From the NCBI RefSeq assembly GCF_910589165.1, contig NZ_CAJUSP010000007.1: DNA of 64,000 nt. One strand, written 5' to 3'. The stretch is from an uncultured Adlercreutzia sp. (GTDB lineage: Bacteria > Actinomycetota > Coriobacteriia > Coriobacteriales > Eggerthellaceae). Shown here one piece after another: positions 49,394-64,000 of the stretch. Position 1 is the stretch's first letter, and each line of letters opens with the position of its first letter. The notes under the pieces are model-generated. The model searched no databases. It had not been told where the DNA came from and was given only the letters and a program-made list of their open reading frames with translations. Both the position numbers and the translations under genes were made by a program.

Positions 49394-52192
49394 ATGACTC
49401 GGCGCAACATCGAGCTGCTGCTTCTGGTTATTGCCTCGCCCATTGTCATCGTGCTGTTCGCGATGTTGGTGGTTACCGGCGGCCAAGAGCTATCGTTTAC
49501 CACCCTGGGCGTGCCCCTGGGCATTTTCGCGGCGTTCATCGCGGCCCATATCGCCGTGCGTTTTCTGGCGCCAGCGGCCGACCCGGCCATTCTGCCCATC
49601 ACCTTCGCGCTTTCGGGCATTGGCATCGCGTTCGTCACGCGCATTCTGCCCGATAAGGCGGTCAACCAGCTGATCTGGCTGTTCTTGGCCGTGGGCGTCA
49701 TGATTGTGGTGCTGGCCGTGGTGCGCAACCTCGACAAGCTGGCGAACTACAAGTACACCCTCATGGTGCTGGGCATTCTGCTGCTGCTGGCGCCTATGCT
49801 GCCCGTCATCGGCTACGAATCCGGCGGCGGCCAGCTGTGGCTGAAGTTCGGCAGCTTCACTTTCCAGCCGGGCGAAATTGCGAAGATCCTCATTGTGTTC
49901 TTCATTGCGGCGTACCTGGCGGCCAACCGCGAAATGCTATCGGTGTTCACGTGGAAGGTGGGGCCTCTGTGGCTGCCGAGCCCGGCCACGCTGCTGCCCC
50001 TTATTGTCATGTGGGCGCTGGCCTTCGTAGTGGTCGTGCTGGAGAAGGACCTGGGCCTGGCCCTTGTGCTGTTCTCGGTGTTCGTCATCATGCTGTACGT
50101 GGCCACGGGCAAGAAGCTGTACCTGGTGGTGTCCATCGGGCTGGCGGCCATCGCGGCCGTGGCGCTCTACGGCATGATGGGCCACGTGCAGGCCCGCGTA
50201 GCCATTTGGCTCGACCCCTTCGCCGACGCCCAGGGGGCGGGCTTCCAGCTGGTGCAGTCCATCTACTCCATTGCCGACGGCGACCTGTTCGGCCAGGGCA
50301 TCGGGCGCGGCATGGGCGGCAACCCCATCGCCGAAGGCGGCATTCCCGTTGCGGAAAGCGACTTCATCTTCCCGGTTATCGCCGAGGAGACGGGCCTGCT
50401 CGGCGCGGCCGGCGTGCTGCTGCTGTACCTGTGCTTCGCCATTCGCGGCGTGGTGACGGCGGCACGGGCGAAATCCGACGTCAGCTCGTTCACCGCCGTA
50501 GGCCTGACCTCGATCATCGTGCTGCAGGCGTTCATCATCGTCGGCGGCGTGACGCGGCTCATTCCGCTGACGGGCATCACCCTGCCCTTCATCAGCCAGG
50601 GCGGTTCGTCGCTCATTGCCAGCTTCATTATCGTCGGCTGCCTGCTGCGCTGCGGCGACGAGGGCACCGGCGTCGGTTCGGAAATGCGCCAGACCGGGGC
50701 CATCGGCGCCCACGGGGCCCACGGCGCAACCGATTCCGTACTCGGGCGCGTGGCGCTGGGCCGTCGCCTGACGGGCACCATGATGATTTACTCCGTGCTG
50801 TTCGCGGTGCTGGTGGCGAACCTCACCTACCTTATGATCATCAAGGCACCGGAGTACCAGAACATGCCGGCCAACAACCACACCATGGTGCGCGAGGCCA
50901 AGATGGAACGGGGCACCATCTCCACCGTCGACGGCACGGTGCTCGCCCAGTCGGTGCGCCAAGACGACGGCTCCTACGTGCGCGAATACCCCGCCGGCAC
51001 CCTGGCGGCCCACGTGGTGGGCTACGCCTCCGAGCGCTTCGGTACCGCTGGCATCGAGGCGGCCTACAACGACACCCTGCGCGGCGAGCAGAACTTCGCC
51101 AGCTTCACCGACGTGGTGAATTCGCTGGCAGGCATTCAGGTGAAGGGCAACGACGTGGTGCTCACCATCGATTCCCGCATTCAGGAGGCGGCACAGAACG
51201 CGCTGGCCGGCCAGGTGGGCGCCGTGGTGGCCATGAACCCGGAAACCGGCGCCGTGTACGCCCTGGCCTCGTCGCCCACCTACGACGCCGCCGACTACGA
51301 GGCGCTGCTGACGGCGGCGGCCGAGGGCAATTCCGGCGACTCCTCCGAGCTGTTCAACCGCGCTACCCAGGCCCTGTACGCGCCGGGCTCCACCTTCAAG
51401 ATGGTCACCCTGGCCGCCGCGCTGCAGGACGGCATCGCCAAGGCCGATTCGGAATACGACTCGCCCGGCGAGATGGACATCGGCAACGCGCCGGTGACCA
51501 ACGTGAAGAAGCGCGACTACGGGAAAATTACGCTGGAGCAGGCCCTGTGGTACTCGTCGAACACGGTGTTCGGCCAGGTGGGCGTGCAGCTGGGGGCCGA
51601 TTTGCTGGTGAACATGGCCTGCAGTTTCGGCTTCAACGAGCAGCTTTCCTTCGACCTGCCGCTGGCCATGTCGCTTATGCCCGACCCCGCGGAAATGACC
51701 GAGTGGGAAACCGCTTGGGCCGCCTGCGGCGAGCCGGTGGGCGAGCACGAGAGCCCGGCCGGCCCCCAGGCCACGGTCATGCAGATGGCGCTTGTGGGCT
51801 GCGCTATCGCCAACGAGGGCGCGCTCATGCAGCCCTACCTGGTGGACGGCATTTACAACGCCAACGGCGAGCGCGGCTTCTCGCCCATTCCCGTGAAGCT
51901 GAAGCAGGCCATCGACGCGGCCACGGCCCAAGAGGAAATTGAGATCATGAAGGGCGTGGTCACCGAAGGCACCGGCGGGAAGGCCGCCATCGACGGCGTG
52001 GCTGTAGCCGGCAAGACCGGCACCCACGAGCGCGGCGACGGCGACGACGACAGCTGGTTCGTGGGCCTGGCGCCTGCCGACGACCCGAAGGTGGTGGTGG
52101 CCGTGGCCATCGAGCGCGGCGAATCGGGCGCGGGTGCCGCTGCCGCCCACGACGTTCTGGAAACAGCCCTCGAAGTGACTGGGGCGCTGTAG
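49394..52192 (+). CDS. Single-polypeptide fusion of a SEDS glycosyltransferase (RodA/FtsW) and a class B penicillin-binding protein (PbpA-like transpeptidase)
   Basis: N-terminal half: 10-TM SEDS with ESDFIFPVIAEE and PFISQGGSS. A linker and an extra TM follow. C-terminal half: PGSTFK (SxxK), YSSN (SxN), GKTGTH (KTG). No stop between the halves. Confidence 0.9.
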   Translation: MTRRNIELLLLVIASPIVIVLFAMLVVTGGQELSFTTLGVPLGIFAAFIAAHIAVRFLAPAADPAILPITFALSGIGIAFVTRILPDKAVNQLIWLFLAVGVMIVVLAVVRNLDKLANYKYTLMVLGILLLLAPMLPVIGYESGGGQLWLKFGSFTFQPGEIAKILIVFFIAAYLAANREMLSVFTWKVGPLWLPSPATLLPLIVMWALAFVVVVLEKDLGLALVLFSVFVIMLYVATGKKLYLVVSIGLAAIAAVALYGMMGHVQARVAIWLDPFADAQGAGFQLVQSIYSIADGDLFGQGIGRGMGGNPIAEGGIPVAESDFIFPVIAEETGLLGAAGVLLLYLCFAIRGVVTAARAKSDVSSFTAVGLTSIIVLQAFIIVGGVTRLIPLTGITLPFISQGGSSLIASFIIVGCLLRCGDEGTGVGSEMRQTGAIGAHGAHGATDSVLGRVALGRRLTGTMMIYSVLFAVLVANLTYLMIIKAPEYQNMPANNHTMVREAKMERGTISTVDGTVLAQSVRQDDGSYVREYPAGTLAAHVVGYASERFGTAGIEAAYNDTLRGEQNFASFTDVVNSLAGIQVKGNDVVLTIDSRIQEAAQNALAGQVGAVVAMNPETGAVYALASSPTYDAADYEALLTAAAEGNSGDSSELFNRATQALYAPGSTFKMVTLAAALQDGIAKADSEYDSPGEMDIGNAPVTNVKKRDYGKITLEQALWYSSNTVFGQVGVQLGADLLVNMACSFGFNEQLSFDLPLAMSLMPDPAEMTEWETAWAACGEPVGEHESPAGPQATVMQMALVGCAIANEGALMQPYLVDGIYNANGERGFSPIPVKLKQAIDAATAQEEIEIMKGVVTEGTGGKAAIDGVAVAGKTGTHERGDGDDDSWFVGLAPADDPKVVVAVAIERGESGAGAAAAHDVLETALEVTGAL

Positions 52193-52273
52193 TACAATGG
52201 CAAGACTCACGAGAGTTCGCAAAGAAACGAAACCGCAAACGCACTCGAACGCGGAACTTTAAGGAGTATCAAC

Positions 52274-54211
52274 GTGACCGGACAGGGAACTATGCAAGGC
52301 AAGACCTTCGGCGATCGCTACGAGATTAAAGATCGCATCGGCATCGGCGGCATGGCCGAGGTGTACCGCGCCCAGGACAACACGCTGGGCCGCGTGGTGG
52401 CCGTGAAGGTGATGCTGCCGCAATTCGCGGCCGATCCGCAGTTCACCCAGCGTTTCCGCCAGGAGGCGGCGGCTGCGGCGAACCTGCAGAGCCCCTACAT
52501 CGTGAACGTGTACGACTGGGGTCACGACGACGATACCTACTATATAGTGATGGAATTCGTGCGCGGGTCCGATTTGAAGACCGCCATCCAGCAGCGCGGC
52601 GCCATCAACCAGCGCAAGGCCGCGGAAATCGGCTCGCAGGTGTGCCAGGCGCTTACCGTGGCCCACAACCAGGACATCATCCACCGCGACATCAAGCCGC
52701 AGAACATCATGGTGCAGCCCGACGGCAACGTGAAGGTGATGGACTTCGGCATCGCCCGGGCGAAGAACTCCGTGAACGACAAGACGTCGGCCGTGCTGGG
52801 CACCGCGCACTACATTTCGCCGGAACAGGCCCAGGGCAAGGACCTTACGGCCGCCAGCGACATTTACTCGCTCGGCGTGGTGCTGTACGAGGCCACCACC
52901 GGCAAGCTGCCCTTCGACGGGCCCGACGCGGTGTCGGTGGCCATGCAGCAGGTGAAGGACGATCCGGTGCCGCCTTCGGCCATCAACCCGTCCATCGACC
53001 CCGACCTTGAGGACATCATCATGGTGGCCCTCGCGAAGGATCCGGCGGCCCGCTTCGCCACGGCCAACGACATGCGCGTGGCCCTTATGGACTACCTGGC
53101 CGGGCGCCCCGTGACGCTGCCCGCCGGGGTTATGGGCTCGTCGTTCACCGAGGCGCAGACCCGCATGATGGGCGCCGTGGGCGCGCCGGGGCAGACGCCG
53201 GGCATCGCCAGCACCCAGGTGATGCCGACGGTGGCCGGTGCGGGCATGGGCGCCGTGTCGCCGGGCGCCACGGGCACCTTCCAGCCCACCGACTTCCGCG
53301 CGGCGAACACGAAGAAGAGCAAGAAACCCGTTATTGTGGCCCTGGTGGCCGTGCTGTGCGTGGCGCTTATTGCCGGCATCGCCTTCGCGGTGGTGGGCGG
53401 CATGGGCGCGGGCGCGGCCGACGACGAGCCCATCGATGTGCCCAGCGTAGTGGGCCAGACCCAGGAAGAGGCATCGTTCACCCTGGAGCAAGCTGGTTTC
53501 AAGGTAACCGTGGTCACCGAGGAAAGCGATTCCGAGGAAGAAGGCACGGTTCTCAGCCAGGACCCGGCCGGCGGTACCAAGCAGCCCAAGGGCACCAGCA
53601 TCACGCTGACCGTGGCCGTGGGGCCCGACACTGTGGAGGTGCCGAACTTCAAGAACATGACCCTTGACGAGGCGAAGAGCGAGGCCGCGGGGCTGGGTCT
53701 GAAGGTGGTGGAGTCCGAAAGCAAGTACTCGGAAGACGTGGATGCCGGCAAGATTCTCTCGCAGAACTACCAGGCCGGCGAGGCCGTAGCGCCCGGCACC
53801 ACCATCGAGGTGGTTACCTCGCGCGGCAGCGAGACCACGACGGTGCCCAATGTCATCGGCATGACCGAGGACGAGGCCTACGACGCGCTGCAGGAGGCCG
53901 GCTTCGGCGTGAACGTGAAGGCCCGCGAGTACAGCGACAAGCAGAAGGAAGGCCGCGTCATTCGCCAGGACCCGCTGAACGACAAGGTGAAGCCGGGCTC
54001 CACGGTGGACATCACCATTTCGAAGGGCCCCGAGCCTGAGCCCGAGCCGGAAGAGCCGGAAGAGCCCACCAATCCGGGCACGACGAACCCCGGCACTACC
54101 AACCCGGGCACGACTGACCCGGGCACCGGCGGCGACGGCTCGACCACCGACCCGGGCACGACCGACCCCGGCACCGGCGACGGCGGCGACACCACGACCC
54201 AGGCGGCCTAA
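52274..54211 (+). CDS. pknB: Ser/Thr protein kinase PknB with three PASTA domains and a PGTT(N/D) repeat tail
   Basis: GIGGMAEVYRA, HRDIKPQN, DFGIA, one TM, three PASTA repeats. GTG 52274 follows AAGGAG. Confidence 0.95.
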   Translation: MTGQGTMQGKTFGDRYEIKDRIGIGGMAEVYRAQDNTLGRVVAVKVMLPQFAADPQFTQRFRQEAAAAANLQSPYIVNVYDWGHDDDTYYIVMEFVRGSDLKTAIQQRGAINQRKAAEIGSQVCQALTVAHNQDIIHRDIKPQNIMVQPDGNVKVMDFGIARAKNSVNDKTSAVLGTAHYISPEQAQGKDLTAASDIYSLGVVLYEATTGKLPFDGPDAVSVAMQQVKDDPVPPSAINPSIDPDLEDIIMVALAKDPAARFATANDMRVALMDYLAGRPVTLPAGVMGSSFTEAQTRMMGAVGAPGQTPGIASTQVMPTVAGAGMGAVSPGATGTFQPTDFRAANTKKSKKPVIVALVAVLCVALIAGIAFAVVGGMGAGAADDEPIDVPSVVGQTQEEASFTLEQAGFKVTVVTEESDSEEEGTVLSQDPAGGTKQPKGTSITLTVAVGPDTVEVPNFKNMTLDEAKSEAAGLGLKVVESESKYSEDVDAGKILSQNYQAGEAVAPGTTIEVVTSRGSETTTVPNVIGMTEDEAYDALQEAGFGVNVKAREYSDKQKEGRVIRQDPLNDKVKPGSTVDITISKGPEPEPEPEEPEEPTNPGTTNPGTTNPGTTDPGTGGDGSTTDPGTTDPGTGDGGDTTTQAA

Positions 54212-54327
54212 CCCTCAACCACGCAGCGCGAGACAGTGCCGAGTCACCTTCTCACCCTTCTGCAACAATCCCGTGAAGACGGGCGGCTCCCTCCCCTGCG
54301 GGCGGGAGCCGCTTCTATAATGGGGGC

Positions 54328-55218
54328 ATGCCCAACCTCTTCGACATATTCGACAAGTTCGTGCACGCCGACTGGTTCAACACCTTCCTCGGCGTTGTTA
54401 TCATCTGCGCCATCACCTTCGTGATCTGCCGCATCGCGGTCACGTTTATGCGCCGCATCCTGAACAAGACCACGCTACTGCCGACGAGCTCCATCTTCAT
54501 CAACCTCGTGCGCGCCATTGTGTGGATCATCGGCATCTGCGCTGTGCTGGCCATCTGCTTCAACGTGAACATTAACGGCATGATCGCTGGCCTGGGCGTT
54601 GTTGGTATCGCCGTGTCGCTGGGCTTTCAGGACACGCTTTCAAATTTGCTGGGCGGCCTGCAGGTAAGCCTGTCGCGCAGCGTGGAGCCGGGCGACAACA
54701 TCAAAATGGGCTCGAGCGGCGTCACCGGCGTGGTGCAGGACGTCACCTGGCGCTATACCGAAATCATCGACAGCTCGGGCAACCACATTACCATCCCGAA
54801 CTCGCTTATGACCTCGACGGCCGTGATGAAGCTGTCGCCGCTGAACAGCATCTCTATCCCCCTGGTGGTGACCACCAACAGCGAGCGGCTCACCACCACC
54901 GCGCACCACATTGAAGACGCCGCCGAGAAGGCCGTGTCACGCGTAAGCAAGCTGAAGAAGCACCCGTCGGTGTCGTTCAGCTCCATCGGCGAGCACGGCT
55001 TCCAAGGCTCCCTGAGCTTCACCATAGCCGATGCCGACAAGGCCTCAAGCGCCGTAGATGCCGCCATCCGCGCCGTGGCCCCCTACGTGCACAACCACCT
55101 GGTGGAAGAAGAAATGAGCAACCTGAGCGAAGGCCAGCTGCCCGCCCTCTCCCCCGACACCACCGGCACCCTCATCCCCGTTCCCGAAAAAGAAAGCGAG
55201 CCCGAGAAATCCGCCTAA
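54328..55218 (+). CDS. MscS-family mechanosensitive channel
   Basis: 3 TM, then GVVGIAVSLGFQDTLSNLLGGLQVSL...GDNIKMGSSGVTGVVQDVTWRYTEI. Confidence 0.85.
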   Translation: MPNLFDIFDKFVHADWFNTFLGVVIICAITFVICRIAVTFMRRILNKTTLLPTSSIFINLVRAIVWIIGICAVLAICFNVNINGMIAGLGVVGIAVSLGFQDTLSNLLGGLQVSLSRSVEPGDNIKMGSSGVTGVVQDVTWRYTEIIDSSGNHITIPNSLMTSTAVMKLSPLNSISIPLVVTTNSERLTTTAHHIEDAAEKAVSRVSKLKKHPSVSFSSIGEHGFQGSLSFTIADADKASSAVDAAIRAVAPYVHNHLVEEEMSNLSEGQLPALSPDTTGTLIPVPEKESEPEKSA

Positions 55219-55232
55219 CTTCTTGGAGGTGA

Positions 55233-55269
55233 ACGAGGGCGGCGGCCGGCGGCCGGCGGCCGCCCTCGT
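55233..55269. terminator. GC-rich hairpin between convergent mscS and antitoxin genes
   Basis: ACGAGGGCGGC...GCCGCCCTCGT. Confidence 0.6.
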
Positions 55270-55288
55270 CAGCGCTTGCGGAAACAAT

Positions 55289-55561
55289 CTATGCTGAGGC
55301 CAAATCCCTGGCAACCAGCAACCTAAGATAGTCAGAGCGCGTGGCGCCAAGCTGCGCCGCTCGTGCATCGATCGCTGCTATGACGGCGGGGGTCTCCTTG
55401 AAGGTGATAGGACGCATGGGCTCGTCGAAAAGGGCTGGGCGGCCTATTCGAGGACGTCCGTACTCTTCGCGATTCCAACGTCCCTCCTCGAAAGAGGCAG
55501 CCAGCTCTTCGACCTGCTCTTCGGTCATTCCAAGCAGCTCGTTCATCTTCTCGCGGTTCAC
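55289..55561 (-). CDS. Ribbon-helix-helix (CopG-like) antitoxin-like protein
   Basis: C-terminus ITFKETPAVIAAIDARAAQLGATRSDYLRLLVARDLA is an RHH signature. Start is GTG 55561 (after GGAAGAGG) or ATG 55546. Confidence 0.6.
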   Translation of the reverse strand: MNREKMNELLGMTEEQVEELAASFEEGRWNREEYGRPRIGRPALFDEPMRPITFKETPAVIAAIDARAAQLGATRSDYLRLLVARDLASA

Positions 55562-55565
55562 AATT

Positions 55566-55835
55566 CTACCTCTTCCCCAGTCCAAGCTCCGCAAGCGTCT
55601 TCCGCGTCGGCGGCGTCATCGCATGAAAGATAACCCACGTACCAAGCGTCACCTTTTGCCCCACCATCTCAACAAGCCTACCGTGCATATCGGCTCCAAT
55701 GGCGATATAACGTACAGGATCCGTCCCAAGGCGCGGCAAGAAAACGATTGCGTTCTCCCAGGCAGCTAGAACATCGCTCTCACTGAGGTCGGGGTGTCGC
55801 TCCGTAATTCGCGGATGAACATACAAGCGATCCAT
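55566..55835 (-). CDS. Small uncharacterised protein, putative toxin partner of the RHH protein
   Basis: 89 aa, placed immediately upstream of and tightly coupled to the RHH gene. TTGACC-17nt-TACGAT promoter-like and AAGGAGG upstream. I do not recognise the family. Confidence 0.45.
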   Translation of the reverse strand: MDRLYVHPRITERHPDLSESDVLAAWENAIVFLPRLGTDPVRYIAIGADMHGRLVEMVGQKVTLGTWVIFHAMTPPTRKTLAELGLGKR

Positions 55836-55968
55836 GCCGCCTCCTTGCTAGCTAATATCGTATTACTAAAATAATATATGGTCAAGTTGCATTTTCTGGA
55901 AATTGATGAGCCGTAAGACAGCCGCAAATCGTATCGGCTATCAAACCCAAAAAGAGCTTACTCGCACA

Positions 55969-56099
55969 GAACCGTCAAAACGTCGGGGGGATTTCCCGTT
56001 TGCGGCCGCCCGCAAACCGTGACGCGGCCGCATTTTTGCTGCCTGCAAACCGTGACGGCGCCGCACCGCCGCCCCTCCCGCAACCGTCACAGAGCCGCA
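55969..56099. repeat. Repeat element A, copy 1 (131 bp, internally three sub-repeats of about 33 bp)
   Basis: Aligns by eye with 57352-57482. Contains GCAAACCGTGACG at 56012 and 56045 and the variant GCAACCGTCACAG at 56080. Confidence 0.85.
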
Positions 56100-56114
56100 A
56101 AGCAGCGAGAAAAC

Positions 56115-56148
56115 GCTGGAGGGCGGCACATCAGTGCCGCCCTCCAGC
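56115..56148 (-). terminator. GC-rich hairpin H1
   Basis: GCTGGAGGGCGGCAC-ATCA-GTGCCGCCCTCCAGC, directly downstream of the Rpn-like fragment. Confidence 0.6.
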
Positions 56149-56187
56149 TCGGTTGTCTAAGCCTTGACCGGCAGAACGCCCGGCGGA

Positions 56188-56571
56188 CTAAGCGCGTTCC
56201 TTGCTGAGCATCCGCTCGCGGAAGGCGACATCCTCGGCGGCGCGGGCGGCCTCCTCGACGCGCCCTTCCTTGAGCAAGCGAGCCATGAGCGCGGCCATCT
56301 CGCCCGCTCCCTCCTCGCGGCCCTCGGCGCGCTCGCGGCGGCAGCGCATGGCTATGTCCTCCTCCAGCATCATGACCCTGCTCACCCACTTCCGGTCGCT
56401 GTTGTACTCGTCGACGAGGGAGTCTATCTCGCGCGAGAGCTCGCCTCCCGCGCTGTCCTCGCGGAGGTATCTTAACAGATCGCAGAGGTCGGGGTCGGCG
56501 GCGTCGGCCCATGCGCGGGCGTTGGATGGCGCCGCGCCGCCGCCTCTCCCGCAGGCGTTGCACAACCGCAT
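56188..56571 (-). pseudogene. Probable 3' fragment of an Rpn/YhgA-like (PD-(D/E)XK putative transposase) gene, or a small standalone homologue of its C-terminal region
   Basis: DPDLCDLLRYL...NSDRKWVSRVMMLEEDIAMRCRRERAEGREEGAGEMAALMARLLKEGRVEEAARAAED resembles the C-terminal E-G-R-repeat region of that family. The first 22 or so codons are encoded by repeat A'. Confidence 0.35.
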
Positions 56572-56750
56572 TCCGGCGCAGAACGTTTGCCGGAGTCCGT
56601 GCGGCAGTATTGACCTGGATCAGAGCACCGATACCGCAAGTCGAAGGTGCGCGGAACGAGGAAACAATCGGAGAACAATGCGCAGAGAGCCTGTCGCTCA
56701 GACCGCACAAGAAGGGGAGGGGCGCTAGCCCCTCCCCTTGGTCTTCTCCG
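56505..56750. repeat. Partial repeat A (3' half) plus repeat B copy 1, including hairpin H2 (56712-56739)
   Basis: Aligns by eye with 57425-57668. Hairpin AAGGGGAGGGGC-GCTA-GCCCCTCCCCTT lies directly downstream of brnA. Confidence 0.8.
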
Positions 56751-56768
56751 GGACAAGCGGGAACCCGG

Positions 56769-57026
56769 CTAGCGTCCGGCTGCCGCCTTCCGCCGCTTCA
56801 GCCCCTCGTCAACGATCATCTTGATCACCGCCTGGCGGCTGATGGCCAGCCTGTCGGCCTCTTCGTCGAGATCGGCGATCATCCAATGGGGAAAGTCCAC
56901 ATTCACCCGCCGCGTTTCGTTGCGGCCGTCGACCATGACCCCGTTGTCCAAATCCACGTACTCGGAGATATCCGCGCCCTCGTCAAAGAGACGATCGAAC
57001 TCCTCAGCCGTTATAGTATCTGTCAT
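56769..57026 (-). CDS. brnA: BrnA-type antitoxin (CopG/RHH)
   Basis: EEFDRLFDEGADISEYVDL...RRVNVDFPHWMIADLDEEADRLAISRQAVIKMIV is typical of BrnA. Overlaps brnT by 23 nt. Confidence 0.8.
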   Translation of the reverse strand: MTDTITAEEFDRLFDEGADISEYVDLDNGVMVDGRNETRRVNVDFPHWMIADLDEEADRLAISRQAVIKMIVDEGLKRRKAAAGR

Positions 57027-57276
57027 AAGCGCTACGCTCCTTTCCCGTTGCGCGACGCACCGATATGATTCTCATACTGGCTCCTCGCCACGTTGTCACC
57101 GCCGTCCAGTACTCTCCCTCAATCCGGCCGACAACGATTTCCCTCTCCTCGCCTGTTACCTTTGCCACACTGACAACGAAATGCGGTGCATCCCAAAGAG
57201 CCTGGGCCTCCTCGAAGTTTATCCCGTGCTTTTCCTGATTGCTGATACTCTTATTTACATCATATTCAAACTCCAT
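57004..57276 (-). CDS. brnT: BrnT-family (DUF497) toxin
   Basis: MEFEYDVNKSISNQEKHGINFEEAQALWD...RIISVRRATGKERSAY is the canonical BrnT pattern. Start ATG 57276. Confidence 0.85.
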   Translation of the reverse strand: MEFEYDVNKSISNQEKHGINFEEAQALWDAPHFVVSVAKVTGEEREIVVGRIEGEYWTAVTTWRGASMRIISVRRATGKERSAYDRYYNG

Positions 57277-57351
57277 AGATATCCCCTTTTGGTATATACA
57301 GTATACCTTTTGAGTAATCCTCACTTGCTAATTTCAGAGCCTATCAAAACC

Positions 57352-57668
57352 GAACCGTCAAAACGTCGGGGGGATTTCCCGTTTGCAGTCGCCCGCAAAC
57401 CGTCGCGCAGCCGCATTTCCGCCGCCCGCAAACCGCGACGGCGCCGCATCGCCGCCCCTCCCGCAGCCGTCACAGAGCCGCATTCCCGCACGGAATCGCG
57501 CACAAAGCCCGTGCGGCAGTATCGGCTTGGATCGGGATCCCCGATACCGCAAGTCGAAGGTTAATCGAAGGCGCGCTGAACGAAGAAGCAATCGCAGAAT
57601 GAGGCACAGAGAGTCTGACTCAGACCGCACAAGAAGGGGAGGGGCGTTAGCCCCTCCCCTGGTCTTTC
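57352..57668. repeat. Contiguous repeat A copy 2 + repeat B copy 2, including hairpin H3 (57635-57660)
   Basis: A2 is 57352-57482 and B2 is 57478-57668. Hairpin AGGGGAGGGGC-GTTA-GCCCCTCCCCT. Confidence 0.85.
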
Positions 57669-58028
57669 CTATGTCGCGGCCCCCATCGGGCCGCCTGCCG
57701 CCCTCGGGCCTATGCGGCCAGCAGGGCCGCCAGATCCTCTCGGCTGGCGAACGGGCGCGGCTCGGCGTCGGGCTCGTGGGCGGGCACTACCTCGCCCTCC
57801 CAGACGTCGCCGCCCTTGTCGAACTTGCGCGAGCGCACCACCCAGCGAAACGCCGGGCGCGCCTTCTCGTCCAGCTCGGCCACCTCGTCGGGGAACGTCA
57901 TCCCCGCGAGCGTCCGCTCGAGCGCCGACAGCTCGTTCTCGCCGCGGTCGGGGGTCACAAGCCCGCTCTCCGGGTTGTACACCACGCCCTCGCCGACGAA
58001 CGCCAGGCGCATCTTCTCGCGGCGCTTG
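57669..58028. repeat. W-repeat copy 1 (360 bp)
   Basis: Essentially identical by eye to 60434-60793 and 62043-62402. One synonymous difference was seen, at the last Ala codon. Confidence 0.9.
57710..58012 (-). pseudogene. 5'-truncated copy of the W gene (C-terminal 100 codons only)
   Basis: Encodes MRLAFVGEGVVYNPESGLVTPDRGENELSALERTL...LAALLAA, identical to residues 65-164 of the full copy. Both TM helices are missing. Confidence 0.5.
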
Positions 58029-58032
58029 TCGA

Positions 58033-58068
58033 TTTTATCCCCCCATTTATCCCCCCATTTATCCCCCC
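58033..58068. repeat. Tandem 12-mer (T/A)TTTATCCCCCC x3
   Basis: Read directly from the sequence. Starts 5 nt after the W-repeat breakpoint and ends 36 nt before the start of the second AlbA_2 gene. Confidence 0.9.
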
Positions 58069-58104
58069 ACGTGCTTATGCCATAATGGCCACCAGGAGGA
58101 GCCT

Positions 58105-59487
58105 ATGAAGACCCTGGAAGAAATAGTCGAAGAACTTGCCGCTAGACCGTGTGAAGAAGAGTGGTTCGAATTCAAGACCAACTGCCACGAGGCAAACGTA
58201 ATTGGAGAGTACATCTCAGCGCTGTCCAACGCAGCCGCCCTTAAGGCCGCTGATGAAGGGTACCTACTTTGGGGAATCCACGACAAGACCCATGAAGTTG
58301 TCGGTACGGACTTCGACTACAGGGCCACAGTAAAAGGTGAGCCACTTGAACATTTTCTCGCTCGGCAATTGACTCCCGACACCGCCTTCTCCTTTGAGGA
58401 GGGACTCGTTGACCACAAACGCGTCGTAGTCATGAGAACGCCTCCGGCACGTCAGGTTCCTACCGCCTTCAACGGAAAGCGCTTTCTCCGCATCGGCTCC
58501 AGCAAAGTTAATCTCTCGCGGTTCCCCGAGAGGGAGGCGGCGCTCTTCAGAGCTCTCCTTCAAGATCCTCCGACCATGGAAAACACCCCTGCTGTAAGCC
58601 AGGAGATGAGTTTTACGAAACTCTTCACGCATTACGCAAACAGAGGCATTGAGCTGCGGCGGGACACTTTTGAAAAGAACCTGGGCCTGCTGACACCCGA
58701 CGGTGACAGAAATCTGCTTGCACAGCTGCTAAGCGACGACAGTAAAATACCAGTGAGGGTTTCGGTATTTCGGGGAAAAGACAAGACGACCCCTCTTGTA
58801 TCGGTTAGAGAGTTCGGCAACACCTGCCTCCTCTCGACTCTGGAGAAGATCTTGGAATACGGCGACGTGATAAACCTCATCCAGGCGGACGAGAGAAATC
58901 GAACCGTCGCAAGAGAAGAGTCCCCACTCTTCAATTCCGACGTATTCCGCGAAGCTGTTGTCAACGCTTTCGTCCACAATAAATGGGTCGACGGCAACGC
59001 CCCAATGGTCACCGTTTATTCCGATCGACTGGAGATAGTCTCCCGGGGTAAGCTCGGTTCAAGCCAAACTACTGAGGGCTTCTTCCGCGGGGAATCGATT
59101 CCCGTAAATCGAAGACTGTCCGATATCTTCCTTCAGCTTCACATAAGCGAGCGATCGGGGCGCGGCGTCCCCACTATCGTCGATGCGTACGGGCGCGACA
59201 CCTACGAGTTTAGGGAAAACTCGATCGCACTAACAATACCCTTCGCCTGGATACAGGAGCCCTATAGCCCAAGTGAAGCAATCTGCGAGGAGCCCCCTAG
59301 CCTTACACCTATCCAAGCCGATGTATACAATGCAATCAAAGCCAATCCGCATATTACCCAGCCACAACTGGTTGAGCTCCTCGGCAGCAGCCGGAACACC
59401 GTCCAACGCGCAGTATCCTCCTTGCGCGAAGCGGGCCTCATAGAGCGTGTCGGATCAAACAAAACCGGATACTGGGAGGTTCACTAG
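58105..59487 (+). CDS. AlbA_2 (Schlafen-like) + HATPase_c_4 + wHTH protein, second and divergent paralogue
   Basis: EEEWFEFKTN...ALSNAAALKAADEGYLLWGIHDKTHEVVGT (AlbA_2), VVNAFVHNKW...ERSGRGVPTI (HATPase_c_4-like), SRNTVQRAVSSLREAGLIERV (wHTH). AGGAGGA RBS. GC visibly lower than the flanks. Confidence 0.85.
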   Translation: MKTLEEIVEELAARPCEEEWFEFKTNCHEANVIGEYISALSNAAALKAADEGYLLWGIHDKTHEVVGTDFDYRATVKGEPLEHFLARQLTPDTAFSFEEGLVDHKRVVVMRTPPARQVPTAFNGKRFLRIGSSKVNLSRFPEREAALFRALLQDPPTMENTPAVSQEMSFTKLFTHYANRGIELRRDTFEKNLGLLTPDGDRNLLAQLLSDDSKIPVRVSVFRGKDKTTPLVSVREFGNTCLLSTLEKILEYGDVINLIQADERNRTVAREESPLFNSDVFREAVVNAFVHNKWVDGNAPMVTVYSDRLEIVSRGKLGSSQTTEGFFRGESIPVNRRLSDIFLQLHISERSGRGVPTIVDAYGRDTYEFRENSIALTIPFAWIQEPYSPSEAICEEPPSLTPIQADVYNAIKANPHITQPQLVELLGSSRNTVQRAVSSLREAGLIERVGSNKTGYWEVH

Positions 59488-59596
59488 CTGCTTATCACGA
59501 ACCAGTTAGAGAGAAGCTCCCGACCCTGGCCTGAGGGGCGCACCTACTTCTTCTTCTGGAAGCCGTGCAAGGCTACCAGCTGGAATCCGTCGTCTC

Positions 59597-60373
59597 TCAC
59601 TGCCCAAGAACACGCATATCTAGCTTCATCATGCAGTTTCCGGAGGCATCATTATTCTTTTCATAGTGGATTACCTCGAATCGGATCTCGGTTCTATCCG
59701 TGAAGACCTGTCCAACTACGCTGCGTCTGGAGATATCGACCTCTATGCTTGGCATTTCTATCTCCCTAAAAGCACGTGATACATCTACTCCATTCTCAGC
59801 ATATGGTAATTCGTTAAAACAGAAGAACGCTAGCGCCTCTAGGTAAACCGCAGGAAATGTAATACGTTGATCTTCCTCTTCCTGAATGAAGGCTAGGTAC
59901 TCTGTTTCGTCCATAGAATAATTCATGCCCTCAGAACCCACGACCAGCCTTACTTCGATACTGCCGTCTTGAAAGGGCTCGCTTACAGATGACGTTATAC
60001 GCGTTAGCCTCGCAAGAGAATCGAGATTGGCTGCCACCCGCCAGTCAAGCTCAACATCAAGAGCAGCTCCCTTGCCCACGTTTGCTAGGACAACACTCGG
60101 GATTGTAAGCGTATCGCTATGCTCCTTGCTAGCGTCTAAATCGGAGGAGTAGTTCGCAGCGTCTATTAACATGCCGCTTTGATTCCACGCTATGGAAACA
60201 TAGGAGCTGCTCAGTCTTATCTCAGACCGAGTCTCTATCTCGTTCGCATCACGTGTCAACTGCATCGTAGAAAATGATACTATCATTGCCAATATAGAAA
60301 CAACGACTGCAATTATAGAAACCACTGTCTCGACCCCACGTCGCCATTTGGACGATTGTTTCGCGTGCTTCAT
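59597..60373 (-). CDS. AT-rich gene V2: single-pass membrane-anchored protein of unknown family
   Basis: MKHAKQSSKWRRGVETVVSIIAVVVSILAMIVSF, then about 220 aa of soluble domain. Only the last 259 codons of track ORF 59597..60910 are credible. Confidence 0.65.
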   Translation of the reverse strand: MKHAKQSSKWRRGVETVVSIIAVVVSILAMIVSFSTMQLTRDANEIETRSEIRLSSSYVSIAWNQSGMLIDAANYSSDLDASKEHSDTLTIPSVVLANVGKGAALDVELDWRVAANLDSLARLTRITSSVSEPFQDGSIEVRLVVGSEGMNYSMDETEYLAFIQEEEDQRITFPAVYLEALAFFCFNELPYAENGVDVSRAFREIEMPSIEVDISRRSVVGQVFTDRTEIRFEVIHYEKNNDASGNCMMKLDMRVLGQ

Positions 60374-60385
60374 TGCTTTCCCCTT

Positions 60386-60933
60386 TGCAGCAAAGGGGAG
60401 GCGGCGCGTAAGCGCCGCCTCCCCTCTTGGTTGGCTATGTCGCGGCCCCATCAGACCGCTTGTCGCCCTCGGGCCTACGCGGCCAGCAGGGCCGCCAGAT
60501 CCTCTCGGCTGGCGAACGGGCGCGGCTCGGCGTCGGGCTCGTGGGCGGGCACTACCTCGCCCTCCCAGACGTCGCCGCCCTTGTCGAACTTGCGCGAGCG
60601 CACCACCCAGCGAAACGCCGGGCGCGCCTTCTCGTCCAGCTCGGCCACCTCGTCGGGGAACGTCATCCCCGCGAGCGTCCGCTCGAGCGCCGACAGCTCG
60701 TTCTCGCCGCGGTCGGGGGTCACAAGCCCGCTCTCCGGGTTGTACACCACGCCCTCGCCGACGAACGCCAGGCGCATCTTCTCGCGGCGCTTGGACTCGG
60801 CCCAGTAGATGCCGCCGATCACGGCGGCCACCACGGCCCACCAGGCCACGGCGACGATCAGGTCCAGCGGGTCGTCCACGTGGTTGAAGCCCAGGGCGAA
60901 CCACACCCACAGCAGCACCCCCGCAGCGACGGC
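60386..60933. repeat. W-repeat copy 2 (548 bp), including hairpin H4 (60394-60425)
   Basis: Matches 61991-62542. Within the coding part I saw a single synonymous difference (GAT/GAC). Confidence 0.9.
60475..60918 (-). pseudogene. N-terminally truncated W gene copy (lacks the first 12 codons)
   Basis: An in-frame TAA (60934-60936) sits exactly at the homology breakpoint. Only a GTG at 60918 could restart translation. Confidence 0.45.
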
Positions 60934-60976
60934 TTAGAGAAGCAGCGGATACTCCGAAATACTCCGAAGCAAGAAC

Positions 60977-61885
60977 CTACGCCTCCGCTACCACACATGA
61001 TGCTTCAGCATCTTTCTCGTCCAAACAGACGAGAGCGTCCTCTGGATTCATTTCAAGTACCTCTATGTCGTGACATAAAATGGCTATTCCGTACGGAGAC
61101 ATTTTTCTCCAAGAAAGCCTCGATTGCATATCGAGGAAGGCGCTGACAGAAAAGCCCATGACGACCGCTATGACTACTAACACTATAGTCAGTGCGAGAG
61201 TTTCCGCAACGTTATCGGGGCTTTTTTCCAAGCTGTTCAATAAATACGGGATCAATGCACCAGTTATCAAAGCGATAACTACAGTAGTAATCCGATCTTT
61301 GCTCCTTTTTTCTTCCTCGCCTGTCTTTCTATATTTTTCGTTTGTTATTTTTATAAAATTTTTATAATTCTCTTTTGTTATATAACCATTCTTTACCATG
61401 TTCGAGAACGTATCTAGTGCTGCGCGGGACTGATAACCCTTCCTAATCTCACCGTAGCTTGAAGATTCTATTCGGTCAACAACCGCAGCAACGGCCAATG
61501 CGATGAACACCACAACAAGCAGCACTTCAGGAAGTGCTTTTAGAATTATCAGAAGTTCTAACACCAACGCAACGATGAGTAAGCACAGCACTGCAAGGAA
61601 AAATCCACGACTACTCCTTGAGTCTATCCTTTTGGCCATCTTTGTAACACGTCCGTCCATCGTAGGATTTACTGAGGCATAGGAATCGAGCCACTTTACT
61701 CTCTCTTCCAGCCAGACTTTAGCGCACTTTTCGTACGTGAGAGGAGACTCTGGGGCATGGCAACCTCGAACATGGATCGTCTCCCCGCTAAGCTCGCTGT
61801 CTTCGACGGTTATTCGAGGCACCTTAGCAGTATGACACAGCGAATCTATGTCACTTCTAACAATAATGTCTATACTTACTGGCAT
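60977..61885 (-). CDS. AT-rich gene V1: 4-TM membrane protein with a ~95-aa N-terminal soluble domain, unknown family
   Basis: 302 aa. Hydrophobic pairs GFFLAVLCLLIVALVLELLIIL/VLLVVVFIALAVAAVV and ITTVVIALITGALIPYLL/LALTIVLVVIAVVMGFSV are separated by a K/E-rich segment. Sampled 60-nt lines have 17-40% GC. Confidence 0.65.
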   Translation of the reverse strand: MPVSIDIIVRSDIDSLCHTAKVPRITVEDSELSGETIHVRGCHAPESPLTYEKCAKVWLEERVKWLDSYASVNPTMDGRVTKMAKRIDSRSSRGFFLAVLCLLIVALVLELLIILKALPEVLLVVVFIALAVAAVVDRIESSSYGEIRKGYQSRAALDTFSNMVKNGYITKENYKNFIKITNEKYRKTGEEEKRSKDRITTVVIALITGALIPYLLNSLEKSPDNVAETLALTIVLVVIAVVMGFSVSAFLDMQSRLSWRKMSPYGIAILCHDIEVLEMNPEDALVCLDEKDAEASCVVAEA

Positions 61886-61990
61886 GCCTTATAAGCCTTT
61901 CTTAAACTATAATTTCTTTAATTATATCATCTCTCATACTGTTAGTTCCAGTCTGTGCTCTCTTGACAATCTCATCCGACCTGAGATTAC

Positions 61991-62542
61991 TGCAGCAACA
62001 AAGGAGAGGCGGCGCGTAAGCGCCGCCTCTCCTCTTGGTTGGCTATGTCGCGGCCCCCATCGGGCCGCCTGTCGCCCTCGGGCCTACGCGGCCAGCAGGG
62101 CCGCCAGGTCCTCTCGGCTGGCGAACGGGCGCGGCTCGGCGTCGGGCTCGTGGGCGGGCACTACCTCGCCCTCCCAGACGTCGCCGCCCTTGTCGAACTT
62201 GCGCGAGCGCACCACCCAGCGAAACGCCGGGCGCGCCTTCTCGTCCAGCTCGGCCACCTCGTCGGGGAACGTCATCCCCGCGAGCGTCCGCTCGAGCGCC
62301 GACAGCTCGTTCTCGCCGCGGTCGGGGGTCACAAGCCCGCTCTCCGGGTTGTACACCACGCCCTCGCCGACGAACGCCAGGCGCATCTTCTCGCGGCGCT
62401 TGGACTCGGCCCAGTAGATGCCGCCGATCACGGCGGCCACCACGGCCCACCAGGCCACGGCGACGATCAGGTCCAGCGGGTCGTCCACGTGGTTGAAGCC
62501 CAGGGCGAACCACACCCACAGCAGCACCCCCGCAGCGACGGC
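61991..62542. repeat. W-repeat copy 3 (552 bp), including hairpin H5 (62002-62033)
   Basis: See copies 1 and 2. This copy is embedded in the only full-length W gene. Confidence 0.9.
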
Positions 62543-62578
62543 CGCGATGGCAGTTACCAGCCAGTTGCTCTTTCTCAT
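62084..62578 (-). CDS. W: small 2-TM protein with a ~100-aa C-terminal soluble domain, unknown family (full-length copy)
   Basis: MRKSNWLVTAIAAVAAGVLLWVWFALGF...LIVAVAWWAVVAAVIGGIYWAESKRREKMRLAF.... GGAGAAC-type RBS (AAGGAGAACTAAG) before the ATG. Confidence 0.6.
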   Translation of the reverse strand: MRKSNWLVTAIAAVAAGVLLWVWFALGFNHVDDPLDLIVAVAWWAVVAAVIGGIYWAESKRREKMRLAFVGEGVVYNPESGLVTPDRGENELSALERTLAGMTFPDEVAELDEKARPAFRWVVRSRKFDKGGDVWEGEVVPAHEPDAEPRPFASREDLAALLAA

Positions 62579-62638
62579 CTTAGTTCTCCTTCCTGAGAAG
62601 AGGGGGCGCGGGTTTCCCGCCCGCGCCCTCGCGGTCGC

Positions 62639-64000
62639 TTACAGGGTCTGGCTCCCGGACAGGGGCACGTAGGCCGGCTCGGCCTCGTCCTCGATGCCCA
62701 GAACCTTCTTCTCGTAGTCGTCTACGTCGTCGGCCATGTGCAGGCGGCGGCGGACAACGACCAGCCCGTAGGCGGAGGTCAGCAGGATGCCAATCAGCAT
62801 CACCCAGTGCACCCAGCAGTGCGGCTCGTCGAAGGCGCCCATCGGGGTGCCGTCGTCCTCGATCTGCTGAGCAGCCGGGGCCTCGTCCTGAGCCGTCGGG
62901 GCGGCAGCCTGAGGCGTGGCATCGTCGTCGATGGTCTCACCAGCCGGAGCCGGGGCCGCAGCCGCAGGAGCCGCGGGAGCAGCAGGCGCAGCCGGAGCCG
63001 GAACCGCAGGCGTCACCGCAGCCGGGGTAGCCGGCGTAGGCGTCGGGGTCGGCGTAGGTGCAGGCGCAGGCGTCGGAGTCGGCGTCGGGGTCGGCACAGG
63101 TAGCGGCGCGGGCGCAGTGATCGAGAAGCTTCCCGGAACCACCGTCACAACATAGTTGGGGTTCGAAGTGTACTCTGCGCGAAGAACATCACGGTAATCG
63201 CCAATAGCTTGGTTGGATCCAATGCGAACATAGCGGACAATCCCCAGATCATTCTCATCCACAAGAGAACCATCAGTGATACGGCCCGTGAACGCCGGAT
63301 CGGCCGTACCGAACACCTTAGTCGCATCATCAACCGTAATAGTCACCGGACGCTGGGTAATCAGAACAGTAGCGGTTTGGATTCCAGTGTCGGTGTAGTT
63401 GTCGAGCGACGCATAGGCCTGGACGGTATGGCGACCAACCGTCGTGAAAGAGGGCACTTCGGTCGTCCACTCTCCGCCGTCAACGGAATAGTAAATCGTA
63501 GAGCCTTCCATGGCAGCGGCCTCAGCAGTCACCGGGCGGCCGTCATAAACCTTGGTAAGTCCGGCGATGTCTACAAACTGAACAAGATTGCCAGAAGCTG
63601 CCACAATTTCGAAGTTGCCTTTCTTGATCTCGGCAACCTCGTAGTTTTTGTTTACGCTTTCACTGTCGTAAACCGCATCCAGAACGCCGTAGTAAACACC
63701 TTCATCTTCGTCAGTGTTCTCGCGAACAACATCAACCTTGCCAAATTCGTCAGAGAGAAGCAAACCATCGATCTCAACACCGTTGTATCCCTCGGGGTCG
63801 AGAGTGTTGAAGTATTTGCTTGCATCATGAACAGTAATGGTCAGCGGTGCAGGATGGATAGTAACAGTGCCTTCCCCAGACCAAATAACCTGGTTAACCT
63901 CGTTAGCAATGCCAATCTTTATAGTAGGCACATCGTCACCCTCAACGGCGTTCTTGTAGAGAGCTTCGCTAGGAACACCGTTCGAAGCATCAATCCATTT
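62639..64000 (-). CDS. Large surface protein with MBG-type repeats, PT/PA-rich stalk and PMGAFD-TM-RRRL C-terminal module (N-terminus outside the window)
   Basis: The frame stays open to position 64000; the track start 63931 is only an internal GTG. KVYDGRPVT and KVFGTADPAFTG...GDYRDVL...NPNYVVTVVPGSFSIT are MBG-domain-like. Confidence 0.8.
   Translation of the reverse strand, partial: KWIDASNGVPSEALYKNAVEGDDVPTIKIGIANEVNQVIWSGEGTVTIHPAPLTITVHDASKYFNTLDPEGYNGVEIDGLLLSDEFGKVDVVRENTDEDEGVYYGVLDAVYDSESVNKNYEVAEIKKGNFEIVAASGNLVQFVDIAGLTKVYDGRPVTAEAAAMEGSTIYYSVDGGEWTTEVPSFTTVGRHTVQAYASLDNYTDTGIQTATVLITQRPVTITVDDATKVFGTADPAFTGRITDGSLVDENDLGIVRYVRIGSNQAIGDYRDVLRAEYTSNPNYVVTVVPGSFSITAPAPLPVPTPTPTPTPAPAPTPTPTPTPATPAAVTPAVPAPAAPAAPAAPAAAAPAPAGETIDDDATPQAAAPTAQDEAPAAQQIEDDGTPMGAFDEPHCWVHWVMLIGILLTSAYGLVVVRRRLHMADDVDDYEKKVLGIEDEAEPAYVPLSGSQTL

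Follow-up and report, generated by a model that had tools for sequence, protein, structure and literature searches.

What do three genes of foreign composition do between repeated copies of a conserved host gene, and do they act together? This question is raised by positions 58029-61990 of a 64-kb stretch of DNA from an uncultured Adlercreutzia sp. (the whole stretch is referred to as the window). Here a gene for a Schlafen-type ATPase with a C-terminal helix-turn-helix domain (the Schlatpase-HTH gene, 58105..59487, + strand) and the genes for two orphan membrane proteins, V2 (59597..60373, - strand) and V1 (60977..61885, - strand), lie among three copies of a gene designated W. The original prediction, made from the sequence alone, read them as a candidate defence module in which a nucleic-acid sensor acts with membrane-disrupting effectors. 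According to our analysis, the interval is made up of two strain-specific cassettes that were acquired separately, each of which ends in a near-identical copy of the 3′ part of W. We favor, with some reserve, an explanation in which both cassettes occupy a recombination hot spot downstream of W, the Schlatpase-HTH protein is autonomous, and V1 and V2 are independent membrane proteins.

Organization of the locus

W is a conserved protein with two transmembrane (TM) helices, encoded directly after giant surface-protein genes across the Coriobacteriia (80 GTDB loci). A hypothetical protein from Adlercreutzia sp. R25 (renamed A. shanghongiae) is 86% identical to the W of the window, which places the host close to Adlercreutzia in the Eggerthellaceae. 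All three copies in the window are on the - strand. Copy 3 (62043..62685) holds the full-length gene (62084..62578), which encodes 164 amino acids with two TM helices and a soluble C-terminal domain. Copy 2 (60393..60933) retains the 3′ 540 nt, and its open reading frame (ORF; 60475..60918) is devoid of the first 17 codons; copy 1 (57669..58028) retains the 3′ 360 nt, begins at codon 60, and has an ORF of 100 amino acids (57710..58012) without both TM helices. The copies are 99% identical over 360, 500, and 643 nt, with an identical core of 294 nt, and have a common 3′ end and different 5′ truncation points. The terminator hairpin (repeat D5) is identical in copies 2 (60387-60449) and 3 (61995-62057). 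The 3′ flank of copy 1 is of the ancestral type, as after W in a sister strain represented by the metagenome-assembled genome (MAG) GCA_948478205.1, which is 99.9% identical to the window over 5.5 kb of the flank (window 57482..52000).

The shared 3′ ends, the differing starts, the terminators on copies 2 and 3, and the sister-type flank on copy 1 together divide the interval into two units. Cassette A (~58029-60392), with W copy 1 as its distal boundary, contains the Schlatpase-HTH gene and the convergent V2 gene, while cassette B (~60934-62042) contains V1 as its sole gene; W copy 2 forms the boundary between them. In the sister strain, this site is occupied by W, a full-length PDDEXK_2/Rpn-like gene, and the BrnTA pair, without Schlatpase-HTH, V1, or V2. 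Direct repeats of host sequence around each insert, together with the survival of one full-length W alongside the truncated copies, are the footprint expected of single-crossover integration. We infer that one homologous crossover would have brought in each circular DNA carrying a W fragment and cargo. No integrase, transposase, or tRNA gene was found near the array among the window ORFs or by Rfam and ARAGORN; the Rfam scan (54000-64000) and the ARAGORN scan (50000-64000) revealed no RNA gene and no tRNA attachment site.

The foreign, low-GC nature of the DNA between the W copies, which the original prediction had pointed out, was confirmed. The GC content of 300-nt windows over 58100-62000 was 0.38-0.57, against 0.70-0.74 in the W copies and 0.63 in the whole window, and the two 60-nt lines quoted earlier hold 24/60 G+C (40%; 61261-61320) and 10/60 (17%; 61321-61380). 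The three genes differ among themselves, with values of 0.52-0.57 in such windows for the first gene (0.54 over the gene), 0.45-0.51 for V2 (0.47), and 0.38-0.49 for V1 (0.44). At third codon positions the GC content was 0.61 for the first gene, 0.49 for V2, and 0.45 for V1, and it reached 0.94-0.97 in the W copies and 0.89 in a neighboring core kinase gene. The coordinates of the three ORFs also agreed with those described before, as did the AlbA_2 + HATPase_c_4 + winged helix-turn-helix (wHTH) composition of the first protein, the single-pass, convergent V2, and the four TM helices and soluble N-terminal domain of V1, the latter two by hydropathy and strand. The stop-free frames of V1 and V2 (303 and 264 codons) are longer than the longest frame in each of 1000 DNA shuffles (maxima of 220 and 198).

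Reality of the array

The array comes from mouse-gut MAGs and is found in at least 20 mouse-gut runs. As the source contigs are MAGs, the tandem arrangement might have arisen by mis-assembly that chained alternative alleles of co-existing strains. The identical 294-nt core is too long for short reads to bridge, and short-read contigs end at it; in one scaffolded MAG, whose W copies contain N gaps, the cassettes stand in reverse order; and the depth of the shared core (60479-60793; runs X1 and X2) is about twice that of single-copy sequence, where a threefold depth is expected. These points are compatible with mis-assembly, but the junctions speak strongly against it. The unique pieces of the array are those leading from the flank into W copy 1 (57357-57743), from the W copy 1 junction through Schlatpase-HTH and V2 to the 3′ end of copy 2 (57999-60490), from the copy 2 junction through V1 to the 3′ end of copy 3 (60904-62099), and the N-terminal part of copy 3 (62513-62833). 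In four metagenomes, each from a different study, the junction contigs are about equally deep (13.4, 14.5, 17.1, and 12.7 in run X1), which indicates that the array is present in one genome. The three 3′ entries into the W core and its three 5′ exits all occur at about 1:1:1 depth in the four metagenomes, no single-copy allele could give rise to the unique junctions of the truncated W copies, and the order of the window is that of three MAG assemblies. Because the junction flows on both sides of the core sum to three, its twofold depth is probably due to GC bias (72-74% GC in the core). The order of the cassettes cannot be fixed by k-mers, since the core is identical, and a look for long reads turned up no Nanopore or PacBio run. 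We consider mis-assembly to be exceedingly improbable.

The Schlatpase-HTH protein

The first gene encodes 460 amino acids. Its product matches SLFN_AlbA_2 (PF04326) at 55.4 bits (cut-off 25.3) over residues 17-137 and profile positions 1-117 of 118, and HATPase_c_4 (PF13749) at 45.2 bits (cut-off 26) over residues 297-364 as delimited by Pfam. The C-terminal wHTH (residues 400-456) is recognized by MarR_2 (39.0 bits, cut-off 27) and HTH_24 (34.6 bits, cut-off 21.9), and TrmB also matched. The combination of AlbA_2 and PF13749 has been named the "Schlatpase" supradomain and has been counted in 60,692 of the 103,533 Schlafen-domain proteins of prokaryotes; Schlatpase proteins are mostly small, and an HTH domain is found in >90% of those with C-terminal tails (bioRxiv 10.64898/2026.05.29.728809). 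The protein is a new member of this very large known family, in contrast to V1 and V2, which are unexplained orphans.

Judged by its sequence, both the nuclease and the ATPase sites of the protein are intact. The nuclease triad consists of E17, E22 (in EEEWFEFK), and D60 (in WGIHDK), and the SAFAN motif is present as SALSN at S38-N42; a profile alignment to rat Slfn13 (5yd0) pairs the EFK, SAFAN, and GVDD motifs. The spacing of 38 between E22 and D60 equals that of E214 and D252 in SLFN11. D252 is named in bioRxiv 10.64898/2026.05.29.728809. On the ATPase side, the Bergerat N-box residues E283/N287/H291 and the glycine boxes G352/G354 are invariant with respect to three Coriobacteriia homologues, and the E-x3-N spacing matches that of E314/N318 in RzAgo. 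A four-sequence profile found the uncharacterised PDB entry 3LMM at 1.2e-18 and gave weak matches to mammalian SLFN8/5/14/11.

The link of AlbA_2-type proteins to defence, on which the original prediction drew, is supported, as the family has been tied experimentally to anti-phage RNase activity through SLFN-pAgo (bioRxiv 10.64898/2026.05.29.728809) and the CRISPR-associated Schlafen Cash (PMC13462974). In SLFN-pAgo, ATP-driven tetramerisation brings the Schlafen nuclease together and turns on tRNA cleavage and phage defence by abortive infection, and protection is lost in the D32A nuclease and E314A ATPase mutants of RzAgo (bioRxiv 10.64898/2026.05.29.728809); Cash is a prokaryotic Schlafen tRNase (PMC13462974). 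By analogy with these two systems, the Schlatpase-HTH protein most likely works alone. Its oligomerisation would assemble a Schlafen-type metal-dependent RNase (E17/E22/D60), the assembled RNase would cut tRNA or other RNA and thereby arrest the infected cell, and the wHTH would bind DNA for autoregulation and/or as a sensing surface. The first gene can be regarded as a credible candidate for a single-protein defence or toxin of Schlafen type.

The comparison with known systems supports placement among the small Schlatpase-HTH proteins (COG2865, with PDB 3LMM as an uncharacterised member). The window protein has the same AlbA_2 + GHKL + HTH domain order and the same motifs, and its lone gene in a variable context corresponds to what has been described for the family (bioRxiv 10.64898/2026.05.29.728809). 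It differs in its setting, as its closest relatives are 52-58% identical and belong to low-GC hosts, whereas the host of the window copy is an actinobacterium of 63% GC, in which W repeats enclose the gene. With SLFN-pAgo (RzAgo) it shares the AlbA_2 + GHKL supradomain and with Cash the Schlafen-type nuclease domain; unlike these, it has no Argonaute core or Csx15/CARF-like sensor, and the wHTH is its only extra domain.

Against PADLOC-DB v2, this protein had one match to PDC-S50 (E=2e-5) that covers just 70 residues at the N-terminus, and its other matches were confined to the HTH. Relatives at about 30% identity or lower occur in Mycoplasma phage phiMFV1, in Streptococcus satellite phages, and on some plasmids, and IMG/VR contained no relatives of Schlatpase-HTH, V1, or V2. 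A phage origin of the cargo was rejected on the basis of the empty IMG/VR result and the low identity, about 30% or less, of the phage-borne relatives.

Upstream of the gene, three tandem 12-nt repeats, [A/T]TTTATCCCCCC (58033..58068, + strand), overlap the -35 region of its promoter; the -10 box CATAAT (58081-58086) lies just downstream of them, and a strong ribosome-binding site, AGGAGGAG, is found at 58094-58101. The repeat has three matches in the window, all at this promoter, a number reached in none of 100 shuffles. It is a candidate operator, which points to possible autoregulation by the protein's own wHTH.

These features raise another explanation, in which the AlbA_2/GHKL/wHTH protein is a plain DNA-binding regulator (the COG2865 reading), perhaps of neighboring surface or membrane genes, and V1 and V2 are ordinary accessory envelope proteins. 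The strong wHTH matches (MarR_2, HTH_24, TrmB) and the operator-like direct repeats at its own promoter are in line with this, as are the recurrence of Schlatpase-like genes near surface-protein/W loci in several Coriobacteriia, the annotation of satellite-phage homologues as "putative transcriptional regulator," and a conserved, degenerate paralogue after the surface-protein gene in five genomes. However, a pure repressor would have no need of the intact nuclease triad, SAFAN-like motif, and GHKL N-box; as a strain-specific gene, it belongs to a hot spot of toxins and defence candidates; and its relatives have no conserved neighbor that could be regulated. The regulatory explanation seems to us unlikely, albeit worth keeping in mind.

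The paralogue just mentioned is a 476-amino acid GHKL + wHTH protein whose gene is convergent to the surface-protein gene near the W-paralogue locus of at least five genomes (L028, L038 16004-17434, L040, L046, and L047). Four of these genomes are assigned to Adlercreutzia and one to an unclassified member of the Eggerthellaceae. The AlbA_2 region of the protein is degenerate and has no Pfam match, and the protein may be a domesticated regulatory paralogue of Schlatpase.

The orphan membrane proteins V1 and V2

V2 (258 amino acids) has a basic N-terminus, one TM helix (residues 16-34), and a β-rich remainder of ~220 amino acids, which is probably extracytoplasmic, in the layout of a type-II (signal-anchor) ectodomain protein. 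V1 (302 amino acids) has a soluble N-terminus of 94 residues, followed by hydrophobic blocks at 95-137 (the length of two helices), 199-217, and 229-250; the remaining parts are a K/R-rich loop of 60 amino acids (15 K+R) and an acidic tail of 52 amino acids, and the outer loops are short. Based on this charge distribution, including the basic lead-in to the first TM helix, KMAKRIDSRSSRG, V1 is predicted to have its N-terminus inside and every soluble part in the cytoplasm. A perfect -10 box, TATAAT, lies 36 nt upstream of V1 (61921-61926, - strand). The V2 start codon is 13 nt past the terminator of W copy 2 and is preceded by a GGGGA ribosome-binding site.

Both proteins are orphans on the scale of the databases searched. 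In a word-indexed search of 5.8e9 proteins, V1 and V2 found only themselves; an exhaustive phmmer search of 1.84e9 representatives, run for V1 alone, returned V1 itself and one junk partial match to a repetitive protein of 2315 amino acids. Nothing usable was obtained from PHROGs, NCBIfam, PDB sequences, or IMG/VR, PADLOC gave no match at E<=0.1, and the isolated soluble parts of both proteins had no Pfam match at E<=1. Without homologues there was no alignment for structure models, and the single-sequence AlphaFold2 models were unusable (mean predicted local distance difference test scores of 43.3 for V1 and 39.2 for V2). No similarity was detected among V1, V2, W, and X291, an orphan of the sister strain described below.

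The likeness of V1 to two-TM effector families such as SLATT, which the original prediction had left undecided, proved to be at the level of noise. The matches fall at residues 191-254 of V1, where a two-helix hairpin (the third and fourth TM helices) follows a charged helix as in SLATT proteins (PF14015/DUF4231, NF033634). The scores were below the curated cut-offs (21.1 bits against 24.7 for PF14015/DUF4231; 17.9 against 41 for NF033634 SLATT_1), and the controls matched unrelated TM families equally well, with E=2.3e-4 for reversed V1 and E=3e-4 for one of eight segment-preserving shuffles. V1 also differs from SLATT proteins in having two further TM helices and a 94-amino acid N-terminal domain, and no SMODS, SLOG, or cyclase partner accompanies it, as no SMODS, SLOG, cyclic-nucleotide, or similar signaling domain was present in the ORFs of 54000-64000 or of the 20-kb locus L001. 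Membership of V1 in SLATT was therefore rejected.

It may be asked whether V1 and V2 each constitute a single-gene membrane defence, independent of Schlatpase-HTH, that acts by superinfection exclusion (Sie) or abortive infection (Abi) in the manner of the lactococcal Sie/Abi systems. Their GC content far below that of the host, their orphan status and membrane location, and the signal-anchor and ectodomain layout of V2 would fit such a role. Moreover, V1, V2, and the unrelated X291 each lie directly behind a W terminator on the W strand, and the same slot of other lineages holds defence candidates. On the other hand, V1 and V2 have no homology, the analogy with Sie/Abi is one of general features, and roles in bacteriocin immunity, the envelope, or adhesion fit equally well. 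We regard the specific proposal of two such defences as rather unlikely, although their most probable role, as a guess, would be phage exclusion by a single gene or some other conflict function at the envelope. The evidence as a whole argues against V1 and V2 being effectors of Schlatpase-HTH and for their being independent, lineage-restricted membrane proteins.

Test of a three-gene module

The effector role was examined through the relatives of Schlatpase-HTH. A metagenome scan found 172, and the neighbor counts below come from the best 80, which are full length and 52-58% identical. Their loci are low in GC (median 38%; gene median 35%). The largest neighbor family occurs in only 5 of the 80 loci, and neighbors are otherwise mutually unrelated; downstream neighbors have any TM helix in 12 of 71 cases, and a convergent TM protein, as V2 is, occurs in 1 of 71. 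In Enterorhabdus sp. P55 (L030), W and a 3′ fragment of W enclose a single cargo gene, a 27%-identical Schlatpase that is encoded on the opposite strand from W. The lack of a conserved or membrane neighbor and the lone copy in Enterorhabdus indicate that the family behaves as a one-gene unit.

This bears on the original proposal that Schlatpase-HTH is a nucleic-acid sensor which triggers membrane disruption by V1 and/or V2, in a RexA/RexB-like or CBASS-effector-like Abi module. All three genes are foreign, adjacent, and low in GC; V1 has four TM helices and large cytoplasmic parts; two SLATT-clan models match it weakly at one place (PF14015, E=4.2e-4; NF033634, E=2.3e-3); and toxin-antitoxin (TA) and Abi genes are close by. 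Against this, the genes are split over two cassettes with separate W-repeat boundaries and differ in composition. Schlatpase-HTH is on the + strand and converges with V2, and V1, on the - strand like V2, lies beyond another W copy and its terminator hairpin. As V1 and V2 have no homologues and match only themselves, they show no co-occurrence, and the relatives of Schlatpase, without conserved or membrane neighbors, occur alone at the same type of site. The SLATT matches are below the cut-offs and are equalled by the reversed and shuffled controls, and PADLOC is empty for V1 and V2. No operator motif is shared, the 12-nt repeat being found within the window only at the Schlatpase-HTH promoter.

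RexA and RexB of phage lambda are a sensor and a membrane effector with four TM helices, and the original prediction resembles that picture in placing a cytoplasmic, nucleic-acid-related protein beside a protein with four TM helices. The resemblance ends there, as there is no sequence similarity, no common operon, and no co-occurrence, and the genes are in separate cassettes. We consider a joint sensor-effector module to be highly improbable. What stands of the candidate defence module is foreign, strain-specific cargo amid TA and Abi genes in a slot for conflict genes; the three-gene unit is not supported.

The slot downstream of W in the Coriobacteriia

The site occupied by the two cassettes receives conflict-type cargo in many Coriobacteriia. 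In some lineages it is empty, and the genes that come after W are TraX, Rce1-like, and DnaJ genes. In others, W is followed by Rpn/PDDEXK_2 genes (L013, L015/L099, L018, L103, and L121), DUF3800 genes (L011, L103, and L129), PBECR3 and CdiA_C toxin domains (L017), or Schlatpases (L030 and L045, with a remnant in L013). Two further cargo genes, both without a W fragment, match PADLOC candidates, namely PDC-S01 in L052 (453 amino acids, 1.7e-103) and PDC-S33 in L065/L072 (337 amino acids, 3.3e-89). From sequence motifs only, we take PDC-S33 to be RelA/SpoT-like and PDC-S01 to be an AAA_14/DUF4143-like ATPase. This range of conflict-type cargo justifies the term hot spot for defence-type cargo, which is a reasonable description of the slot downstream of W.

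In Adlercreutzia rubneri ResAG-91 (L013 11930-12382), a Schlatpase remnant of 45 N-terminal residues, with 69% identity to the protein of the window, lies downstream of W amid DUF3800-like and Rpn-like genes. Relatives of Schlatpase have thus reached the same hot spot in another species.

Cargo bounded by W fragments was observed in at least five lineages of the Eggerthellaceae. The partial copies outside the window (L011 4106-4324, L015 11501-11563, L017 1416-2447, and L030 2761-2916) bound cargo, and fragments are near-identical to the full-length W of the respective genome. The truncation points vary from case to case, there are no recombinase genes nearby, and the geometry fits repeated integration of circles by single crossover. 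W itself is preceded by surface proteins with MBG/Flg_new/Ig-like repeats and a C-terminal TM anchor (window 62084-63931 and beyond), and some genomes have arrays of surface-gene/W pairs (L030, L045, and L115). A few W homologues have a precomputed PF25592 match.

The arrangement recalls core-gene hot spots and the orphan arrays of contact-dependent inhibition (CDI)/Rhs systems. In the latter, a part of the toxin gene is what is repeated, whereas the C-terminus of the toxin varies together with the immunity gene. A conserved anchor gene, variable cargo of TA, Abi, nuclease, and defence-candidate genes, and partial anchor copies separating the cassettes are common to these and to the W slot. 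Unlike in CDI/Rhs arrays, the repeat here is the 3′ end of a small membrane-protein gene unrelated to the cargo, and there is no nearby recombinase.

Behind a surface-protein gene, the sister strain has a second W copy with the same terminator, and X291 comes next (L102 10691-11566 of the sister MAG). This gene encodes an orphan of 291 amino acids (GC 0.40) with several TM helices and a soluble C-terminus, which is unrelated to V1 and V2. Its location right behind W and this terminator suggests that membrane-protein genes are interchangeable in the slot. The least ordinary features of the locus are that W 3′ fragments recur as boundaries of cassettes and that one unrelated orphan membrane gene after another is found behind W. 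One could go further and propose that the post-W position is an exchange slot in which orphan membrane genes are swapped or stacked through recombination in the W 3′ end, W and a V gene forming a two-part envelope system. We hold this to be very doubtful; if it were true, the W + V pair could serve the exclusion of phages or toxins in connection with the giant surface proteins encoded upstream, and the cassettes would represent integrase-free shuffling and a new class of partner proteins.

Flanking elements

The statement of the original prediction that TA modules flank the locus was borne out. The BrnT (57004..57324) and BrnA (56769..57026) genes, on the - strand, overlap by 23 nt and together occupy 56769-57324; they were identified by PF04365 (78.6 bits, cut-off 34.5; 4.4e-22) and NF047399 (91.6 bits, cut-off 60; 2.6e-26). 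The second, weaker pair is of the ribbon-helix-helix (RHH) type. These small overlapping genes at 55289-55835 (89 and 101 amino acids) had only weak RHH/VapB-like matches, on the 101-amino acid protein (NF050181, E=1.6e-5), and probably represent a further TA module with an unrecognised toxin. AbiEi/AbiEii genes lie ~6 kb past the window end on the same contig.

BrnTA is bracketed by two repeats, D3 (55953-56116 and 57336-57499; ~135-165 nt) and D6, a 57-nt GC hairpin (56682-56738 and 57604-57660). Their copies within the 64-kb window are local only, and a genome-wide nature as miniature inverted-repeat transposable elements or repetitive extragenic palindromes was rejected. In the sister strain, D3/D6 (L103 1721-1860, 2808-2941, and 4191-4324) bracket the Rpn gene too, a full gene for a 273-amino acid Rpn-like protein located between W and BrnTA (L103 1898-2719). 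The window strain appears to have lost this gene by recombination between D3 copies. The remaining orf127 (56188-56571) corresponds to the C-terminal half of a protein of the Rpn-like PDDEXK_2 type. In anti-phage Rpn toxins, the C-terminal domain serves as an intragenic antitoxin (bioRxiv 10.1101/2023.05.02.539157), and orf127 may thus be an RpnS-like fragment that has survived.

Conclusion

Several points weigh against the explanation by an autonomous Schlatpase-HTH and independent membrane proteins in two acquired cassettes. Experimental phage defence has been shown for no small Schlatpase-HTH protein, a class without demonstrated function, and the family has long been annotated as transcriptional regulators (COG2865) or "RecG-like helicase." V2 shares its cassette with Schlatpase-HTH, so that, as far as sequence tells, the two may have a local functional link; the expression of V2 is itself uncertain, as the 13 nt after the terminator leave no space for a promoter of its own. 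Runs that possibly contain RNA (the type is unknown) had an even, low depth over genes and spacers and were unusable as evidence of expression. As to the architecture, Campbell-type integration is drawn from the repeat geometry alone, the MAG assemblies differ in the order of the two cassettes, and the W core showed two rather than three times the single-copy depth.

Overall, the locus looks like ordinary defence-island cargo and not like a three-gene sensor-plus-effector machine. Current ideas are not overturned by this, and the main value of the analysis is the withdrawal of the "sensor plus membrane effector" reading of the three genes. V1 and V2 add two more true orphans to the low-GC membrane proteins of such sites. 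If the explanation that we favor is true, the slot downstream of W would be a mapped hot spot for defence and accessory genes in the Coriobacteriia, a gut clade with few such sites mapped, in which cargo is stacked by means of duplicated 3′ fragments of a host gene with no recombinase nearby. The stand-alone Schlatpase-HTH protein, with its intact motifs, would then be a simple test case for tens of thousands of similar small proteins.

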